From positions 2,560,001 through 2,624,000 of the forward strand of contig OY970340.1 in NCBI GenBank assembly GCA_963717465.1: a stretch of DNA of 64,000 nucleotides. The letters are read 5' to 3'. The notes below the pieces were generated by a model. It had not been told where the DNA came from. It worked only from the letters and a program-made list of their open reading frames with translations, and did not search any database. Each line of letters begins with the position of its first letter. Position 1 is the first letter of the stretch. The position numbers were made by a program, and so were the translations under genes. Shown here one piece after another: positions 50,806-63,880 of this stretch. This DNA comes from Candidatus Bathyarchaeota archaeon (GTDB lineage: Archaea; Thermoproteota; Bathyarchaeia; Bathyarchaeales; Bathycorpusculaceae).

Positions 50806-52113
50806 ATGAGGAAAACCATATTCAAGAAGCTTGAAGCCCAGGGGCTAATAGCAAATTATAATAGGTTAAGAAAAAATTTGCCACCTAAACTCCCTGAGCG
50901 AACATTCATTTGGGATGAAACATTCAAAGAAGGCATAAAATCACCCACGATTTACTTGACTTATTTTGAACAGGTTAAGCTTGCAAAGTTAATGGATGAA
51001 GTGGGTATTTCTATCATCAACGTTGGTTTTCCAGCCTTATCTGAAGAGGAAAAACGTAATGTTAAACGCATCGTAAATGAAAGTTTTTCCCACGCTAAAC
51101 TTACAGCTTCAGCAGACCCAACAAAGAACAGCATTGATGCATGTTTAGAATGCGGTATAAAGGAGATAACCATTGAATCGCCCGTTAATGGTTTAAATCT
51201 TCAATACCGGTTAAAAACTACTAAAGCGCAAATTCTAAAAAAAATTGAAGAAAGCATCGATTACGCTCGAAAACATGGTGCAGAAGTAAATTTCGTCTTA
51301 ATTGACGGCACGAGAACGCCGCTTGAAGACATTTTAGAAACGTTTCAGTTAGCAGTTAAAGCTGGAGCAACCAAACTGGTAATTGCTGATTCTGTTGGTT
51401 TTATAAGACCATTATCGATGCGTTACCTCATATCACACATCAGTGATGGGTTGCCTGATTCAATCCGAAAAAAGGTGCCGCTTTCAATTCACTGCCACAA
51501 TGATTTCGGTTTGGCAACGGCAAACACGCTAGCTGCCGTGGAGGAAGGCGTATCTTACTTACATACGTGCATCGCTGGGTTTTGGGGGACGCGCAGGAAT
51601 AGCACCGTTTGAAGAGGTTGTTACAGCAACAGAACTGCTCTATAATATTGACACAGGAATTGATCTTGGAAAAATAACTAGGCTAGCTCAAGCTGCCGAA
51701 AAAGGATTTGCCTTGCCCATTCAATTTCACAAGCCGATAATCGGCGAAAACATCTTCGCCCAAGAAGTAGAAAAAGAAGTTGACGAAATGTTAGAGCATC
51801 CATTGGTTTATGTGCCATATCCGCCTGAAATTGTTGGGACGAGAAACAAGTGTTTTTATCGGAAGAAACACTAGTCACGCTGTTAATTCAGCAACTTTTG
51901 GAAAAAGCAGGAATTAGAGCATCACCTCGGCAAATGGATGAGGTATTTAGGCGTATTAAAGGTCCTAGTGAAGGCTTAGATAAAGGCGAAGCCCAAATGA
52001 CCTATTACCAAGTGAAAAAGTTAATGAAAGATTTGCAGAAGGGGTATACGATGGATGAATTCTGGCGTTTAGTGGAGCAAGTAACAAGGCAAAAACCAAA
52101 GCTGCTTACCTAA
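50806..52113 (+). CDS. Isopropylmalate/homocitrate synthase-family (DRE-TIM) homologue, multiply frameshifted
   Basis: VGFPALS, ADSVG, HCHNDFGLATANTL; continues after shifts near 51585 and 51835-51880 via RAGIAPFEEVV...HKPIIGENIFA...YPPEIVG. Confidence 0.8.
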
Positions 52114-52141: not shown

Positions 52142-53173
52142 TCATCTGAAGCAAGTCCAAGCTAACTTAAAGCCTAATTGCTGTTTTATTTTTTCTTTTT
52201 CTTTAAAGGACATAATTTTGGGATAATTGTAGAATGGCCCGCTTGGCTTTTCGTTATAGAAGGGGCGGTTACAATTGGGACATCCTGAAGTTAAGAAAGG
52301 AACTCCAGTTTCAACTATTTTTTCTAACTGCCCTTTTTTAAGCCCGAAACTCGTTATTTTTCCTGCTTCGTCGAAGCCAAAACTTTCGCAGCGTGATGAG
52401 CCTTTAACTATCAAGAATCTAGCTAATTGCACTCGTCGGTAAGCTTCAATTTTAGGCTGAGCACTATTTTCCAGCGCTGTGCCTTTTATGGGTGTAAAAG
52501 CAAACAAGGCAGGCAAAACATTCATATCAAAACATGCCTGAATAGCTGTAACAGCGTCTTTCTCAGTTTCACCCAAACCCACAATCAAATGTGTGCTTAC
52601 GTTTCCTTTTCCCAAGAGTTTAGTCGCCATTTCTAATTGTTTAAACTGGTTTTGCCAAGTGTAACAGCCTCCAGCATCTAAACCCTTAACTTTATTGAAT
52701 AAAACCTCTGATGATGCATCTAAAGCGATTCCAAGACGGTTTACGCCTGCTTGTACAAGGAGCTGAATGTTTTTCGCAGTTTGAGGTTGGCATGAAACTG
52801 AAACTTCAATTGAAGACTTATTCTTTAATTCTTTAACTATTGCTTCAAGATGTTGGAAAACATTAGGATAATTCAGTGCTTGAATACACACACGTTTTAT
52901 TTTGCCTTGTTCAAACGCAGTTTTAATCGCAATTATCACGTTTAATGTTGGAAACGTTGGCCATGAAACTCTTGAAAGCAGTTCTGCTTTGCTTTGGCTT
53001 TTTCTGGCTTGAGGGCAAAATCCACAGTTTGCAGTACACTTGCCAGCATTATAAGTCATCAAGTATGCTGCTGTAGGTTCAGCATCAAGTTTACCCTCTG
53101 CCAAGCCTATGACAATAGCTGTCCCCGTTGAAACCCGTATTTGCAAAGGCAAACTTGTTTCTTTTTCAAGCAA
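52142..53173 (-). CDS. lipS2: Radical SAM protein, LipS2-type lipoyl synthase component
   Basis: CTANCGFC radical SAM motif and C-terminal TSGCPNCNRP, matching the TxGCPxC(N/D)RP signature described for LipS2. Confidence 0.75.
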   Translation of the reverse strand: MLEKETSLPLQIRVSTGTAIVIGLAEGKLDAEPTAAYLMTYNAGKCTANCGFCPQARKSQSKAELLSRVSWPTFPTLNVIIAIKTAFEQGKIKRVCIQALNYPNVFQHLEAIVKELKNKSSIEVSVSCQPQTAKNIQLLVQAGVNRLGIALDASSEVLFNKVKGLDAGGCYTWQNQFKQLEMATKLLGKGNVSTHLIVGLGETEKDAVTAIQACFDMNVLPALFAFTPIKGTALENSAQPKIEAYRRVQLARFLIVKGSSRCESFGFDEAGKITSFGLKKGQLEKIVETGVPFLTSGCPNCNRPFYNEKPSGPFYNYPKIMSFKEKEKIKQQLGFKLAWTCFR

Positions 53174-53311
53174 TATGGTACACCGCTGGACTTATGAGAA
53201 GTGTACAAGTGGAATGTATATTAGTTTTAGGTTAAGAATGAGCGTTTTCCTATTGTTTTTGAATAAAAAAGATGATATGTGAGCACTTATAAGATAATTT
53301 TACCTACGTAA

Positions 53312-53707
53312 TTAGTATTCAACGTCTGGGAGAGCTTTTGCAAGGTCAGCCATGTGTCCTAAAGCTTTAACATTCTTCATCATCTTGGAGAACGGTCCTT
53401 CAATCTTGTATTTTCCGGTAACTGATGCCTTCTGAGCATTAATAGTACCTTGAATTACTCCAGCCCAAGTTATGTAGTCAGCCTTAAACTTGAAGTCAAC
53501 TGGCTCCTCAGCATTCCCCGGCTTAACAGAAACCTTACCATGATCCCACGTAGCAATCCAAGTCATCGGACCAGTATCTGTTGGTTTATCAGTGAAGATA
53601 TAAGCCCACTTCTCCGTCATATTCGCCTCATTCATAATCTTATCATCACTCATAGCCTTAGACCATAAATCATAATACGCTTGCGTAGCATACTTTACTT
53701 TCGCCAT
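53312..53707 (-). CDS. SCP2 sterol/lipid-binding domain protein
   Basis: DFKFKADYITWAGVIQGTINAQKASVTGKYKIEG; GAGGAGGTGA SD. Confidence 0.8.
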   Translation of the reverse strand: MAKVKYATQAYYDLWSKAMSDDKIMNEANMTEKWAYIFTDKPTDTGPMTWIATWDHGKVSVKPGNAEEPVDFKFKADYITWAGVIQGTINAQKASVTGKYKIEGPFSKMMKNVKALGHMADLAKALPDVEY

Positions 53708-53849
53708 CTTGTCACCTCCTCAACTATCCAACCAATGGTTGCCTATCGCTTATTCTAAAAAGCAAATATAAGGCTTACTTTAGTTAGCGCTTGCAGAAAA
53801 GCACTAACCAAGCTTTTTTACTGTATATTGGTTTAATCTGAATATTGTG

Positions 53850-54836
53850 TTAGTCTTCTTTTTCGGTTTTGTCTTCTTGTGTACGTCGAGCCCACTCAGT
53901 TCTTCTATCAGTCATTAAAAAGTAGCGTGCCTCTCCTTTGGCAGCCTTGGGAATATAAGCACGCGGTAAAGTCCCAACGCCTCGTATTAGGATCAATCGA
54001 GCGGCTTCTTTGGTTCTATTACATGCCATGAGTTCAACTTCTCCGTACGGGCACCACACTTTACATAAATCACCCAGAGGACATTGAACTCTAACGCTAC
54101 CATCTTTGCGGAGAAATAGAACAGCATCAACGTCGACGGCTGAAGGAGCGCACTCGCATATTACCATTCTTGCGCACTCAAGTTTGTTGCTTTCTTGAGG
54201 AGAAATAGAAAATGGAGGATACTCTTTATGAAATCTTGTGTAGCCAATCGTTCTTGCTTTTTCAGCAGCTTCCTCTTTGGAAGTTCCAGTTGCAACTACA
54301 TGCAATGACTCCCTGTCTCTGCAAACCCAAAAAGCATCAAAACCTCGATATTTCGAGAATACAGGATACAGGTAAGCTTCTTTGTCCTTCAAGACAGGTC
54401 TTTCTTGGGTTGCTGATAACTCTTTTCCGAAAATGACCGAAAGCTTTTCTGGAGAAACGGTTTCTTTTTCTGACAAAATCGCGCTAGTTGCGGAGCCACC
54501 TTCGCCTAACACTTTTTTTAAAGCGTGTGAAAAAGTAGGCAGGGACTTGTATTCTCCCTCCATTTGGAGAAAGCCTCTGTATATCCTATGTAACCCAACA
54601 CGTGATCCACGAATTTTCACGAAAATTGCGTAAGGATCAATTTTTCGCAGCTCTTTTACGGAGTTCTCAACATCGTTTCTTTTTCCTCTTATCACTATGC
54701 CACTACAGGTTTCTCTCACGTTAACTGGCAGAGGCATTGTGGCGCCGTGGAGATAGGCAGGAGTTACCCAAGAATCGGGAGAGATAACAATCTCCATCGA
54801 TATTACATCGTCTTTGTTATCATCATTTTTACTCAT
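53850..54836 (-). CDS. Methanogenesis marker 6-like domain with Cys-rich C-terminal extension
   Basis: IVISPDSWVTP...VRETCSGIVIRG...LRKIDPYAIFVKIRG...GFLQMEGE resembles Mmp6 as recalled; adjacent to Mmp5 and Mmp15 homologues. Confidence 0.7.
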   Translation of the reverse strand: MSKNDDNKDDVISMEIVISPDSWVTPAYLHGATMPLPVNVRETCSGIVIRGKRNDVENSVKELRKIDPYAIFVKIRGSRVGLHRIYRGFLQMEGEYKSLPTFSHALKKVLGEGGSATSAILSEKETVSPEKLSVIFGKELSATQERPVLKDKEAYLYPVFSKYRGFDAFWVCRDRESLHVVATGTSKEEAAEKARTIGYTRFHKEYPPFSISPQESNKLECARMVICECAPSAVDVDAVLFLRKDGSVRVQCPLGDLCKVWCPYGEVELMACNRTKEAARLILIRGVGTLPRAYIPKAAKGEARYFLMTDRRTEWARRTQEDKTEKED

Positions 54837-56076
54837 TGTTTTTTTCTCCTGAAGCTAATATTGCAGCGCCTACAGCACCAGCATACTGCGGAAATTTTGG
54901 AACCAAAACTTTCGCGTTTATAACGTTTTCAAATGCTGCAACTAAACCCTTGTTCAAAGAAGCCCCTCCAGTTACAATCACCGGTTCCCGCAAATCTATT
55001 TCCTGCAACTGTTGTTCGAAAAACTGTTCAGCAACACTTTGACAAGCTGCTGCTGCTACATCCTCTCTTCGTATGCCTGAAGCCAAAGCACCAGCGATAT
55101 CCTGCATTCCAAAAACAATGCAATAAGCATTCATAACAACACTCTTTGGATCGCCTTGTAATGCTAAATCACCCAGACTGTTAATATCAACGCCGATTCG
55201 GTTGGCAGCAACTTCCAAGAACCTGCCCGAGCCTCCTGCACATATGCTTCCGACCGTGAAACAATCAGGAACACCATTGTGAATAGACATGGCTTTGCTA
55301 TCTGTACCTCCTATGTCAATTATAGTAGCGTACCCATCCTGTTTATTAGCGAGAAAAGAGGCTCCTTTCGCACTTACTGTAATTTCTTCCAACGCAACAT
55401 TGGCATTAAACACTTTGCCCAAAATTTCCCGGCCATAACCAGTGACGCCCACTGCATCCAACTGGTTCATTTTCAGTGATGCTTTCTTAAGGGCTTCTTC
55501 AGCTGCTTTACGACCAGTTTCTAATATATCAGTTGTGGGAAGCCACGCTAAGCTGACTATTTGCCCGTCTTTCATAACTGCGGCCTTAGTCATGGTTGAA
55601 CCGGAGTCTACGCCTAAGGTAATGCCAACTTGTTTCTGCGTTGATAGGAGTTTTCTTTGATTAACTAAATTAGCGAGCGCTTCCATTCTGAGAAGCAAGT
55701 TTCGCTTCATGGTTCGCTCAGTGAATGAATAAACCATGACTGGGATATCGAGTTTGGATTGAAGGTACTTCCTAATTATATGCTTTACAAGGGCTCCTTC
55801 ACCGCAACGGAAACAGGTTAAAATCATTGCTGCATCAACCCAGAAACCGGCTGAATCAGGTCTTTTTTCAACAAGAGATAGAGCTTGGCCAAGCATAACT
55901 TTCAATGCATTGCTGGCGGGAACAAAACCTAACTGTTCTTCTGCACGTTTTATCTCTCCAGTAGTGGTTTCTGGAATGGAAATATCAGCATTAGCGGTTG
56001 CTGCTGCCTTATCAACTTCATTTTGGATGCCGCTCCATTCGGTGCCGCATGAAATCTGTGCAATTTTGATGGTCAC
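54829..56076 (-). CDS. Methanogenesis marker 15-like BcrAD/BadFG-family ATPase (activase)
   Basis: KIAQISCGTEWSGIQ, TCFRCGEGAL, YSFTERT, GVDSGSTMTKA, TGYGR, DIGGTDSK, ICAGGSGRFLE, YCIVFG. Confidence 0.88.
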   Translation of the reverse strand: MTIKIAQISCGTEWSGIQNEVDKAAATANADISIPETTTGEIKRAEEQLGFVPASNALKVMLGQALSLVEKRPDSAGFWVDAAMILTCFRCGEGALVKHIIRKYLQSKLDIPVMVYSFTERTMKRNLLLRMEALANLVNQRKLLSTQKQVGITLGVDSGSTMTKAAVMKDGQIVSLAWLPTTDILETGRKAAEEALKKASLKMNQLDAVGVTGYGREILGKVFNANVALEEITVSAKGASFLANKQDGYATIIDIGGTDSKAMSIHNGVPDCFTVGSICAGGSGRFLEVAANRIGVDINSLGDLALQGDPKSVVMNAYCIVFGMQDIAGALASGIRREDVAAAACQSVAEQFFEQQLQEIDLREPVIVTGGASLNKGLVAAFENVINAKVLVPKFPQYAGAVGAAILASGEKNNE

Positions 56077-56522
56077 TGCTTCAACTCCTTTTCAGGCTGT
56101 TTAAGGAAGTTAACTACTTTTTGAACAAAAACCACTGCTTCCTCTTCATTGCGTGGATAACTTAGCGAAAGAATCGGAATATCTCGCTGTCTAACCATGT
56201 ATTTCGCGAATTCATTTGCTCTAGCACAACCTGAACTGCCAAAGGCTATTTCAGAATTTTCCACAAGAATTGCAACATCAGCCTGCTGCACCAAGGGCGC
56301 CAGCACATTTATTCTTCCTCTGACCCCGGATGGGACATCAACCGAACAATATTTTAGAGCTTCTCGCGGCTCTTTGTAAGTTATGCCGTATGGTGGCGAA
56401 TCAAAAGTGGCAATTTTTGCACGTTTACTAATTTCTTCCATTATAGCTAAAGGCTCATGACCAAGCCTTTTCACCATATCATACAAAACCAGACTATTGT
56501 ACGGGAAAATGAAGACCTTCAA
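56073..56522 (-). CDS. Methanogenesis marker 5-like protein
   Basis: MKVFIFPYNSLVLYDMVKRLGHEPL, DSPP, LKY..VDVPSGVRGR, AFG.SGCARANE. Confidence 0.88.
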   Translation of the reverse strand: MKVFIFPYNSLVLYDMVKRLGHEPLAIMEEISKRAKIATFDSPPYGITYKEPREALKYCSVDVPSGVRGRINVLAPLVQQADVAILVENSEIAFGSSGCARANEFAKYMVRQRDIPILSLSYPRNEEEAVVFVQKVVNFLKQPEKELKQ

Positions 56523-56804
56523 ACACCTGACCTCTAGTTAACGTCTCAAAAGCTCATTAAAGATTATTTCGGTATTTTCATGTATTTCCTTATCGTAAAA
56601 GTTTCTAGATGATTTAGACAAAAATGGACCTGATAAGTTTTTACAGTGGATTCATTAAGGAAACTTAAATAACGATTGTTTACTTGCAAAAACTTGCATA
56701 TTACACTATTGTTTAGTTTTGACGGAAAGTTATAAATTGTTAAGATGCTATTAGGAGTAAATATATAGTATTTGAGCTATTGATGTAAAAAAGAGGATAG
56801 GAAA

Positions 56805-57552
56805 TTGAGCACTCACGCAGAAGATTTGAAGCTTCGGTTAATGACGATTGAACTTTTAAGAACTGCCAAGTATAAACGTAATATTACTTATCGAGAATTA
56901 GCTTCCAAAACAGGTTTACCAGTCACCGTTTTAAGCCGATACGCAAAAGGACACGTTTTACCCAACACCACACGCGCAAGACAACTTGGACGGATTCTTA
57001 CTAAACTAGTGGGTTTAGAAGCAGAGTTGCGGAGCAGAATAAAATTTGATGACACAGGATATTTCGATAACACTGAAATAGTGGGTGACTACAACATCCT
57101 TCAGCAAGCAGCAAATCATGCTCTTGCCAATTTTGCTGGAAAAAGAGTAACAAAAGTATTAACTGCCGCCGTAGATGGCATTCCGTTAGCCACCATGGTT
57201 GCTAACTCATTAGGAGTTAATCTTAATCGTCGCAAAAAGAAACAAGGAAGTAGGCGTTAAAGCCTTCCTTGAAGAAACATACATTCTAGGAAGAGATTCC
57301 GGAGTAACAGTGACACTTTACATTCCAAAAGAAGCAATAAAAAAACGTGACAGCGTTCTCGTAGTAGACGACATGATTAAAAGCGGAGAAACCCAGGAAG
57401 CACTAGTTAACCTCGTTAAAAAATCGAAGGCTGAGATTTCAGGCGTTTTCTCGCTCATCGCCGTCGGTGAGGAATGGAAGAAACGACTCAAATTCGGCGA
57501 CGACGCTCCAGTTGAAGTAGTCACTTACCTCAAATCACCAATCGACAACTAA
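56805..57552 (+). CDS. HTH + phosphoribosyltransferase-domain protein (PurR/Apt-like; frameshift near 57223)
   Basis: TYRELASKTGLPVTVLSRY HTH; LTAAVDGIPLA; VLVVDDMIKSGET PRPP motif in the second frame. Confidence 0.85.
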
Positions 57553-57599: not shown

Positions 57600-58599
57600 T
57601 TGAGAACTATAGAGTGGAAAAATGGAACAGTTATAACCATTGACCAAACAAAACTGCCCAATGAAACAGTAACTTTAAAAATCAAAACAGTTGAAGAAAT
57701 GGCTGAAGCAATAAAAACTCTGCGCATCCGTGGTGCTCCATTGCTGGGGGCAGCAGCTGCATTCGGTGTTGCGTTGGCGGCTTACAATTCAAAAACACAA
57801 AATAAAGAAGAATTGCTAGCTGAATTAGAGGACGCTGGTGCAGTAATTAAGCGCCAAAGACCAACAGCTGTAAACCTTTTTTGGGGTGTTGATCGCGTCT
57901 TTAAAAAAGCACACGAATTTTCAGGAAGCACGGATGAATTAAGAGCATTGGTTATTGCTGAAGCACAAAAGATTCTTGAGGAAGATGCAGAACAGAACCG
58001 TGCAATCGGTCGAAACGGTGCAGTACTTATTAAAGATGGTGATACAATTTTAACTCATTGCAATGCGGGCGAACTGGCAACTGTTGAATATGGCACTGCG
58101 TTGGGAGTTATTACGGGCTGCTTGGGAACAAGGCAAAAAAATCAAGGTTATTGCTGATGAAACTCGGCCGCTACTGCAAGGTGCAAGGCTAACAACTTAT
58201 GAGCTTAAACGTGCAGGTATACCTGTGACTTTGATTACTGATAACATGGCTGGCTTTATCATGCAAAAAGGGCTTGTTGACAAGGTTATTGTTGGCGCAG
58301 ACCGGATTGTTCAGGATGCTGTTATTAATAAAATTGGTACTTTTTCAGTTGCCGTGTTAGCGCATGAACATAAATTGCCTTTTTATGTTGCGGCGCCAAA
58401 ATCCACGTTTGACTTAGCCCATAAGGCTGCTGATGTTACAATAGAAGAGCGAAAACCTGAAGAAGTTACACACATTGGTAATCAAAGGATCGCTACAGAA
58501 GGCGTAGCAGTTTATAATCCTGCTTTTGATATAACACCGTTGAAATATGTCTCGGCAATTATCTGTGAAAGTCAGAGTCTATTACCAAAAAGATTTTAG
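57600..58599 (+). CDS. mtnA: Methylthioribose-1-phosphate isomerase / eIF2B-family (frameshift near 58112)
   Basis: [57 protein letters not shown]. Confidence 0.88.
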
Positions 58600-62514: not shown

Positions 62515-63880
62515 TTAGAGCCGTGCGATGTATCTTTTGACTTCCCACTCGGTTACTTGAGTTTTGTATAGGTCCCATTCTCTGCGTTTCTCAATTAAGA
62601 AGTTTTCGAATGCAGTTGGGCCTAAGGTTTCACGCATTAGATCGCTTGTTTCCAGTTCATCCAAAGCTTCTTTAAGCGACTCTGGCAGGGATATTATGCC
62701 TCGTTCTTTACGCTCCTCGTACGTCATGTGGTAAACGTTCAGTTCAACTGGGTCTCCAGGATCAGTCCTGTTTTTAATGCCGTCTAGTCCTGCTGCCAGC
62801 AGCACTGCAAACTGCAAGTAGGGGTTTCCTGCTCCGTCAGGGTTAGCGTATTTCGCATCGCGCTGCAGCTTTTCTTCCTCCAAAGTTAGGCACTCTAATG
62901 AGCGGCGACCTGTTCTTGTGCGCCCAAGCCAAGTAAACTGGTGCCTCGTAGCCGGGGACTAAACGTTTGTAGGAGTTTGGCCAAGAGTTCAAAATCGCCG
63001 TCATTTTGCGTCCATGAGCTAATTGTCCACCGATAAAGTTTCTTGCGAGGTCGGAGATGTAGCCGTCTTTTGCATTGTCAGAGAAGAAGAGGTTTTGGGT
63101 AACGTCTTTGTTCCATAGGCTTTGGTGTGTGTGCATTCCTGAACCGTTTATTCCTTGGAATGGTTTTGGCATGTGTGTTGCTAAGTAACCGTTGCGGGCT
63201 GCAACGACTTTTGTCACCATTTTCATGGTTATTGTGCGGTCAGCTGTGTCCAAGACTTCGCCGTATTTGAAGTCTATTTCGTTTTGTCCCAGCGCGACCT
63301 CGTGATGGCTAATTTCGATTTCAATTCCGAAAGGTTCTGCCATATCAGCGATTTCTCTACGTAGATCGTCGGTTAAGTCGCTCGGGTGGAAATCAAAGTA
63401 GCCAGCCATATCAATCGGCGTAGGTAAACCGCCGTTTTCGGCTTCTTTAACTATGAAGAATTCAAGTTCTGGTGCGCATACGTAAGTGAAGCCTGCTTTG
63501 TTGGCTTTTTCGACGGCTCTTTCAAGTATGTATCTTGGATCTCCTTCGAAACGTTTGTTTTGTGGAGTATATATGTCACATAGTAATCGGCAAGAAGATT
63601 TTTCTTTTGGCCTCCAAGGCAATACGGCGAATGTTGTCGGGTCTGGATAAAGAACCATATCCGATTCTTCGATTGGCCTGTAACCGGTTATGGATGAACC
63701 ATCAAAGGATTGCCCGTGTTCAAAGATGCCTTCGATGTTTTTTGAACTGACGGCCAAGTTTTTTAGCATCCCGTTAATGTCGGTAAATTGCAGTCTAACA
63801 AATTTCAAGTCTTGTTCCTGTATCTGTTGAACAACTTTTGTAACGTTCGCCTTCCAAGTTGAATCCTTGAAGTTTCTCAT
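62515..63880 (-). CDS. glnA: Glutamine synthetase type I (frameshift near 62845)
   Basis: FDGSSI, HHEVALGQNEIDF, MPKP..GINGSGMHTHQSL, SYKRLVPGYEAP, NRSPLIRVP, EIR|PDGAGNPYL. Confidence 0.95.

Follow-up and report, generated by a model that had tools for sequence, protein, structure and literature searches.

A divergent second Mmp5–Mmp15–Mmp6 gene set in an MCR-bearing bathyarchaeal genome

Introduction

What is the role of a cluster of methanogenesis marker genes that lies far from any gene of methyl-coenzyme M reductase (MCR)? The question is raised by three overlapping genes found at positions 53850 to 56522 of a 64,000-nucleotide stretch of DNA, hereafter the window, from a Candidatus Bathyarchaeota archaeon (assembly GCA_963717465.1, contig OY970340.1). 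The window corresponds to C1:2,560,001-2,624,000 of the genome G000, on a single 3.05-Mb contig. A first-pass annotation, made from the sequence only, had read these genes as homologues of methanogenesis markers 5, 15 and 6 (Mmp5, Mmp15 and Mmp6). According to the available part of 10.64898/2026.03.18.712670, these families are conserved in archaea encoding MCR or alkyl-coenzyme M reductase (ACR). The annotation proposed that either the genome encodes MCR elsewhere, or the trio is an autonomous reductive-activation module serving another enzyme. We show here that the genome possesses both mcr genes and a canonical marker set, and that the trio of the window, as judged from its sequences, is a distinct and rare variant of the Mmp5/15/6 system, which we call type-2.

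Three overlapping genes of the marker 5, 15 and 6 families

The trio is carried by the minus strand. It starts with mmp5 (56073..56522), which codes for a DUF2112 protein of 149 amino acids (aa) from a TTG start, with a GAGGT upstream of it. Next come mmp15 (54829..56076; 415 aa, GTG start) and mmp6 (53850..54836; 328 aa, ATG start), the open reading frames overlapping by 4 nt (mmp5/mmp15) and 8 nt (mmp15/mmp6). The three open reading frames were identified using NCBIfam and Pfam, with matches to structure chains in addition for Mmp15 and alignments for Mmp6. Mmp5 obtains 184.8 bits with the marker 5 profile TIGR03271 (curated NCBIfam cut-off, 140.25) and 181.1 bits with Pfam DUF2112. Mmp15 obtains 547 bits with the marker 15 profile TIGR03286 (cut-off, 455.75), covering profile positions 1-403 of 404 and hence both the N-terminal and the ATPase domains. 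It also matches the acyl-CoA dehydratase activase domain TIGR00241 (280.2 bits; cut-off, 125.4) and, over aa 154-408, Pfam BcrAD_BadFG (PF01869, 198.9 bits). Mmp6 matches TIGR03272 at 54 bits, under the cut-off of 125.95, over aa 33-134 of its 328 residues, and Pfam DUF2102 at 56.4 bits, over the gathering score of 25. Its approximately 190 extra C-terminal residues match no family, and it appears to be a divergent, extended homologue of marker 6, not an equivalog. The profile searches thus support the reading of three overlapping marker homologues, Mmp5 and Mmp15 passing the NCBIfam thresholds and Mmp6 that of Pfam only. The absence of markers 3, 17 and 7 and of component A2 beside the trio, also pointed out in the annotation, holds as well: no mmp3, mmp7, mmp17, atwA or mcr gene adjoins it within the 64-kb window.

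Mmp15 was proposed to be an ATP-dependent Fe-S activase-type protein, and several lines of evidence agree with this proposal. The protein has an N-terminal domain (aa ~1-150) with conserved Cys10, Cys88 and Cys91, followed by an ASKHA (acetate and sugar kinases, Hsc70, actin) ATPase domain of the HgdC/BcrAD type (aa ~152-410) with Cys279 and Cys319. These two cysteines align with Cys127 and Cys166 of 1hux, which we take to be the ligands of the [4Fe-4S] cluster bridging the subunits. Among solved chains, the sequence matches 4eht (E-value 1e-34) and 1hux (1e-32), and DCCP-R also matches the ATPase domain. In addition, we examined an AlphaFold2 model of a natural Mmp5-Mmp15 fusion from another genome, G651 (see below), which has a mean pLDDT (predicted local distance difference test) of 84 and a predicted TM-score (pTM) of 0.69. 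In Foldseek, its C-terminal half matched 1hux with a TM-score of 0.93, as well as HadI, MbdQ/MbdP and DCCP-R, all matches falling in the ATPase domain and none in Mmp5 or in the Mmp15 N-domain. Indeed, no similarity of Mmp5, Mmp6 or the Mmp15 N-domain to any solved chain or other Pfam family was found, and neither the Mmp15 N-domain nor the Mmp6 C-terminus gave a Pfam match at E-values up to 10.

A canonical MCR system on the same contig

By searching the whole genome and annotating C1:1,660,001-1,680,000, we identified a canonical cluster about 940 kb from the trio, on the same contig. The mcrB-D-C-G-A genes lie at about 1.66 Mb, mcrA, whose frame is interrupted at one point, being found at 1.663 Mb. 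The opposite strand carries mmp8-mmp7-nifB-like-mmp17-mmp15-mmp5-mmp6-mmp3, with atwA in divergent orientation. The only mmp3, mmp17, mmp7 and atwA genes of the genome are located there, at C1:1.67-1.68 Mb. The canonical mmp6 codes for 159 aa (150.7 bits), and full Mmp15 genes occur twice in the genome, at 1.674 Mb (654.5 bits) and in the window (546.6 bits). The suggestion that MCR is encoded elsewhere in this genome was therefore right, since mcr genes are present together with the full usual machinery, including its own mmp5, mmp6 and mmp15; any reading without MCR fails, as mcrBDCGA lies on the same contig. The annotation had added that the usual machinery would make the trio merely expected. 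The machinery is there, but the second part does not follow, because the trio is an extra set belonging to a divergent subfamily.

Indeed, the window and canonical proteins of this genome are only 56% (Mmp15) and 50% (Mmp5) identical. Because of this distance and because the two fall in different clades, the trio is a second set and not a recent copy of the canonical one. Four traits characterize type-2 sets: the gene order 5-15-6, a location away from mcr, the loss of the first cysteine of the Mmp5 motif and a C-terminal four-cysteine module in Mmp6. All four are found together in the window, in the metagenome loci L041 and L043, and in the loci of the genomes G651, G645, G802 and G707.

Several observations were made on the canonical cluster itself. 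In the annotated region (L009, 46-5078), a single break interrupts the frame of each of the genes mcrB, mcrC and mcrA, and mcrD is short; all nine neighbouring mmp, nifB and atwA genes are intact. The breaks are not located at long homopolymers, and 3-4 of them in about 5 kb exceed the average of the window. They are likely due to assembly error, since this assembly contains broken housekeeping genes as well. Between mmp17 and mmp7 lies a NifB-like radical SAM (S-adenosylmethionine) gene (L009 12111-13091, minus strand; TIGR01290, 317 bits, under the cut-off of 343.65), a position that fits the L-cluster-like cofactors reported in the MCR activation complex.

Rearranged cysteines in Mmp5 and Mmp6

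A single CxxC motif is described as the hallmark of the Mmp5 family in the available part of PMC9425974. In the Mmp5 of the window, this motif reads SxxC (Ser96, Cys99) and the hallmark is thus lost. Position 96 is a cysteine in 57 of 61 sequences and a serine only in the window and in L041-L043, and Cys99 is kept in all 61. More generally, the first cysteine of the motif is absent from all six type-2 sequences and present in all 14 canonical ones; in the fused Mmp5 of Nezhaarchaeales-like genomes, it is replaced by a proline (PxxC).

The Mmp6 of the window is composed of a DUF2102 N-domain (aa ~10-110), an inserted middle domain (aa ~141-215), seen only in the clade of the window, a four-cysteine module and a basic tail. 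The module, C227-x24-C252-P-x5-C258-x3-C262-P-Y-G (54042..54158, minus strand), is a predicted metal or Fe-S site, and its four cysteines (C227, C252, C258 and C262, window numbering) do not vary among ten aligned sequences (A5). The spacing C-x5-C-x3-CP with a remote cysteine recalls [4Fe-4S] motifs. A match to HycB was non-significant (E-value 0.55) and counts as no evidence. Among 50 Mmp6 proteins derived from loci, only those of the window, L041 and L043 possess the module, which we also found in G651 and G707. The Mmp6 proteins of L041-L043 are shorter (171-181 aa) and, without the middle domain of the window, share its C-terminal module. The relatives of these short type-2 proteins form 13 clusters, two of them labelled by NCBI as metagenome-assembled genomes (MAGs) of Thaumarchaeota or Nitrososphaerota. 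In the VIA wide search, a model of the window Mmp6 gave matches to generic ferredoxin-like folds (Z <= 8.1), confined to residues 4-82, and the Atlas search gave no usable match for aa 141-275.

Phylogeny and distribution of the type-2 sets

The first-pass annotation had suggested phylogeny as a check, and the trees, built as quick searches, place both the Mmp15 and the Mmp5 of the window in a clade apart from the canonical copies. With an HgdC-like paralogue of G000 as outgroup (branch length, about 9), 30 canonical Mmp15 sequences form one clade, with a support of 99 in the SH-aLRT (Shimodaira-Hasegawa approximate likelihood ratio test), and 18 type-2 sequences fall outside it. Without outgroup, these 18 lie on one side of a branch supported at 92.8, and in the Mmp5 tree six type-2 sequences are separated from 14 canonical ones with a support of 92. 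The two Mmp15 proteins of G000 are not sisters: the canonical one groups with P0044 (91% identity) and that of the window with P0011-P0013 (86-90%).

The sequences also suggest that the type-2 set is maintained by selection. Although synonymous sites are saturated, the fused proteins described below retain 60-69% identity, and the ratio of non-synonymous to synonymous substitution rates (dN/dS) of Mmp6 is 0.11-0.24, as a rough figure. The dN/dS of the fused genes was discarded because of this saturation. Orthologues of the window proteins on other contigs are 86-90% (Mmp15) and 70-78% (Mmp6) identical. As regards expression, one search of sequencing runs listed no RNA run and a single DNA run, with a small share of words.

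Type-2 sets appear to form a rare family, represented in three lineages. When 5.8 billion clusters were searched by word index, six proteins like the 328-aa Mmp6 were returned, itself included. Its C-terminal 188 residues, searched exhaustively against 1.84 billion representatives, gave five matches at E-values up to 0.001, among which P0009, a tandem-repeat protein, is taken as spurious. Scans of genome and metagenome contigs yielded no locus for these Mmp6 relatives, and their co-location with Mmp15 relatives (P0011/P0003, P0012/P0002 and P0013/P0004) is based only on the equal size of the host contigs. In the genus of the window, Mmp6 is matched in one of 120 species representatives, G000 itself, and Mmp15 exceeds the cut-off in one of 61, again G000. 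Because these are the sole occurrences, the whole MCR system is an oddity of G000 within its genus.

We compared the gene organization in 81 loci, consisting of 80 metagenome loci with Mmp15 relatives and the locus of G140 (L034-L114). Most loci spanning the region show A2-mmp3-mmp6-mmp5-mmp15-mmp17-mmp7 or variants of it from TACK archaea (Thaumarchaeota, Aigarchaeota, Crenarchaeota and Korarchaeota). The mmp6 gene comes last (5-15-6) in only three of the 81 loci, and in the others that span these genes it is located upstream of mmp5 or on the opposite strand. The 5-15-6 order without any other gene of the system, over distances of up to 10 kb, is seen only in L041-L043; in L041, the trio is surrounded by genes of housekeeping function, namely rpsB, MEMO, mvk, ipk and idi. 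Since no gene beyond the trio is common to the neighbourhoods of the three type-2 lineages, the set seems to behave as a self-contained module.

Fusion and an apparent island loss in a Nezhaarchaeales-like lineage

Among the 401 genomes of a phylum sample, 41 contain Mmp15 at E-values up to 1e-100. Three of them (G645, G651 and G802) present a second, lower-scoring match, and G707 presents the lower-scoring match only. In these four genomes the lower-scoring matches are Mmp5-Mmp15 fusions of 576-585 aa (585 aa in G651), with a 170-aa Mmp6 downstream that carries the same cysteine module. Because the two proteins are fused in this lineage, which is Nezhaarchaeales-like (the canonical Mmp15 of G651 is sister to a protein labelled Nezhaarchaeales), the fusion argues that Mmp5 and Mmp15 may act together.

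The four genomes differ in what accompanies the type-2 set. In G645 and G651 (95-96% complete), mcrA, mmp3, A2, CfbD and the canonical mmp15 are found in an island about 1 Mb from the type-2 set or on another contig. G802 (72% complete) has mmp3, A2, CfbD and a fragment of the canonical mmp15, with no match to mcrA. In G707 (88% complete, 240 contigs), no match was obtained for mcrA, mmp3, CfbD (marker 13), A2 or the canonical mmp15. None of its type-2 genes is broken; the SGC, CFRC, DSGS and CAGASG motifs are all preserved, as is the cysteine module of Mmp6. On its contig C140, the orthologue of the G651 gene 310299-311606 (88% aa identity) is separated by about 390 bp from the orthologue of 330002-330286; in G651, these same two genes flank the 18-kb A2/mmp/mcr island. 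Among the ten species representatives of this family, both sets are present in three, the canonical set alone in two, the type-2 set alone in one and neither set in four. In family f46, 32 genomes carry the canonical Mmp15, each in a single copy.

Beyond the trio, the comparison of G707:C140 (L122, 6736-8667) with G651:C1:310299-330286 shows a clean absence of the island between conserved flanks in a relative of the same genus, and provides a defined boundary for the gain or loss of methanogenesis in this family.

The persistence of markers after Mcr loss was described by Adam et al. 2022 (PMC9635834, in the part available), who use Borrel's numbering, in which, per Table S6 of PMC12700198, m5 is DUF2102, m6 DUF2112 and m7 YjiL-like. 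For cultivated Methanonezhaarchaeia, the available text of PMC12700198 reports that two species clusters of the methanogenic family have no mcr and retain a limited subset of markers. One such MAG lacks mcrABGCD, m4, m8 and m9 and has DUF2102, DUF2112 and YjiL-like (Table S6). The same available text makes no comment on a second Mmp5/6/15 set.

Proposed role and alternative explanations

What could this second set do? We see an even chance that the type-2 trio forms, separately from the canonical set, a remodelled HgdC-type complex for ATP-driven Fe-S electron injection. In such a complex, an Mmp15 dimer would hold the bridging [4Fe-4S] cluster and ATP hydrolysis would drive the transfer of a low-potential electron; the adaptor or acceptor part would consist of Mmp5 and the N-domain of Mmp15; and the cysteine module of Mmp6 would supply a metal site replacing or extending the one weakened in Mmp5. 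The target would be a metallo-cofactor or an enzyme of methane-type metabolism, other than the one served by the canonical set, and is probably not restricted to MCR. ATP-driven transfer of low-potential electrons is suggested because Mmp15 combines the ASKHA fold with both cysteines at the cluster positions. The assembly of Mmp5, Mmp15 and Mmp6 into a complex is likely, the gene overlaps and the fusions being indirect indications of it. Whether the role goes beyond simply redundant help to MCR seems to us evenly poised.

Several points weigh against this proposal. On the phylogenetic side, five of the 18 type-2 Mmp15 sequences (P0014, P0039, P0042, P0043 and P0050) were assigned from the tree itself, and the sole added support for P0042 is a host contig of the same size as that of a type-2 Mmp6. 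The Mmp15 root is also unstable, falling among Euryarchaeota in one tree and among type-2 sequences in another; type-2 may be an ancient sister group or, within TACK archaea, an offshoot of the canonical set. On the structural side, the Mmp6 model is poor (pLDDT 59.6) and metal binding by the four-cysteine module is a prediction; every step of the proposed mechanism is inferred. The distribution also speaks for a link with MCR. Any Mmp15 is found in just two of 401 genomes of the class sample, and four of the five genomes with a type-2 set (G000, G645, G651 and G802) carry genes of the MCR system. The fifth, G707, is a MAG of 240 contigs, 88% complete, and its MCR could lie on unbinned DNA; moreover, a genome that does have MCR, G615, gave no CfbD match. 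The phyletic association of the trio with MCR is thus strong and fits a role dedicated to MCR equally well.

Such a role is what the nearest alternative supposes, namely that the type-2 set is a dedicated alternative helper of MCR, doing the job of the canonical trio in different circumstances or by use of a different electron donor. It accounts for the MCR-system genes in these four genomes and for the fact that, among the 120 species representatives of the genus, the sole MCR-bearing genome is the one with a type-2 set. Moreover, the canonical Mmp5/6/15 are placed in an "MCR activation operon", with MMP15 as a possible transient ATPase of the activation complex, in the available part of 10.64898/2026.03.18.712670. 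However, type-2 sets never adjoin mcr or mmp genes, and the altered cysteines in two subunits point to a changed metal site and not to simple redundancy. In G707 the set is intact, although no MCR island lies between the conserved flanking genes, and the single Mmp15 of the 32 f46 genomes implies that a second set is not generally needed for MCR. We judge this explanation plausible but less probable than not. A bolder reading goes in the opposite direction: the type-2 set would be an autonomous ATP-driven Fe-S reductase, a sister and not a late copy of the canonical set, with a target other than MCR, and would outlive the loss of methanogenesis. In our opinion, this is possible but doubtful.

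Two other explanations are much less probable. The trio could belong to one lipoyl/thiol cofactor operon with the SCP2-like gene (53707..53312) and the radical SAM lipoyl synthase gene LipS2 (53173..52142), which lie on the same strand directly downstream. The genes are however separated by gaps of 142 and 138 bp. The first gap (53708..53849, minus strand), read directly, shows a T-run and a TATA-like TTATAT box ahead of SCP2, and is probably the end of the transcription unit of the trio. Neither gene accompanies the type-2 sets of the other two lineages, a 420-bp copy of SCP2 is found beside unrelated genes at C1:2309599-2310018, and LipS2 is located elsewhere in relatives of the genus that lack the trio. 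A common operon is thus very improbable, and SCP2 and LipS2 are probably not part of the module. Finally, the trio could be a functionless leftover of a duplication or transfer, in the course of decay, as the many broken frames of this assembly (mcrA, mcrB, mcrC and several housekeeping genes) and the score of Mmp6 under the NCBIfam cut-off might suggest. We find this hardly credible in view of three intact frames with translational-coupling overlaps, the ATPase and cluster motifs kept in Mmp15, the identity levels of the Mmp15 and Mmp6 orthologues on other contigs and a derived cysteine pattern conserved across three lineages. The GC content of the trio, overall and at third codon positions (GC3), also matches that of the genome, and a recent transfer judged by composition was likewise set aside.

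The type-2 set has several consequences. Since its cysteines are rearranged, two of its subunits are naturally fused in one lineage and at least one apparently MCR-island-less genome retains it, this paralogous set could separate the role of the trio from MCR itself, and it supplies concrete residues and constructs. If the autonomous reading were true, the marker trio would be a general archaeal reductive-activation machine and type-2 a route to the function of Mmp5/6/15. Moreover, tables of marker presence and absence can score Mmp5/6/15 as present in non-methanogens through a type-2 set, and inferences on methanogenesis remnants are affected for this reason.

Genes around the trio

Upstream of mmp5, an intergenic region of 282 bp (56523..56804), read directly and presumed to contain the promoter, leads to a divergent APRT-like gene. 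Over the right flank of the trio (APRT-like, mtnA, endA, methyltransferase, hisS), synteny extends to four relatives, which have nothing in common with the window to the left of APRT. The APRT-like gene (56805-57552), mtnA (57600-58599) and glnA (62515-63880) are each split over two frames in the window, APRT and mtnA being in a single frame in the four relatives. A gene of the isopropylmalate/homocitrate-synthase family (50806-52113, plus strand), which adjoins LipS2, is also split over two frames and could be of the AksA type, for coenzyme B synthesis. The SCP2-like gene (53311-53730) has its second copy about 250 kb away, beside Etf-like and HdrC/B-like genes; the copies are reported as 100% identical over 420 bp, and base-by-base extension stopped at 184 bases.

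Comparison with known systems

We found no earlier description of a second Mmp5/6/15 set in the literature consulted, which covered only Tables S5-S6 of the supplements of PMC12700198 and did not extend to Borrel 2019. The closest known system is the canonical set, as around MA_3998 in M. acetivorans (10.64898/2026.03.18.712670), which comprises the same three families as adjacent genes and for which, according to the available part of that source, deletion attempts on Mmp5/6/15 gave no clean mutants. Canonical and type-2 Mmp15 share the N-domain and the HgdC-type ATPase, with the CFRC, SCG and ATPase cysteines conserved, and both kinds of Mmp5 keep Cys99, within SxxC (PxxC when fused) in type-2 and CxxC in the canonical set. 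On the other hand, the gene order is 5-15-6 instead of 6-5-15 and, unlike the MCR activation operon, the type-2 set has no adjacent mmp3, mmp17, mmp7 or atwA. Its Mmp6 lacks a loop of the canonical Mmp6 of G000 (ICRADRGGGPKPG) and adds the four-cysteine C-terminal module, together with an extra domain of about 75 aa in the clade of the window.

HgdC (1hux), HadI (4eht) and MbdQ/MbdP (9gai) have in common with Mmp15 the ASKHA fold and both cysteines at the position of the bridging cluster. Mmp15 differs from them by its extra N-domain of about 150 aa with three conserved cysteines, and by its partners, which are Mmp5 and Mmp6 and not the core of a dehydratase or reductase; a CoA-ester substrate is not implied. 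In the DCCP:DCCP-R system (7yyl), an HgdC-type ATPase feeds a separate Fe-S acceptor, and DCCP-R matches the ATPase of Mmp15 in both sequence and fold, whereas no similarity to any solved chain was found for Mmp5, Mmp6 or the Mmp15 N-domain. Finally, the MCR activation complex (McrC, Mmp3, Mmp7, Mmp17 and A2 on MCR; 9H1L; PMC12176620), in whose structure paper Mmp5, Mmp6 and Mmp15 are not named (0 occurrences in the text), shares the neighbourhood of the canonical cluster. The type-2 set is unlinked to any gene of this complex, and the theme common to the complex and the trio is a reductive activation that depends on ATP and passes through complex Fe-S clusters.

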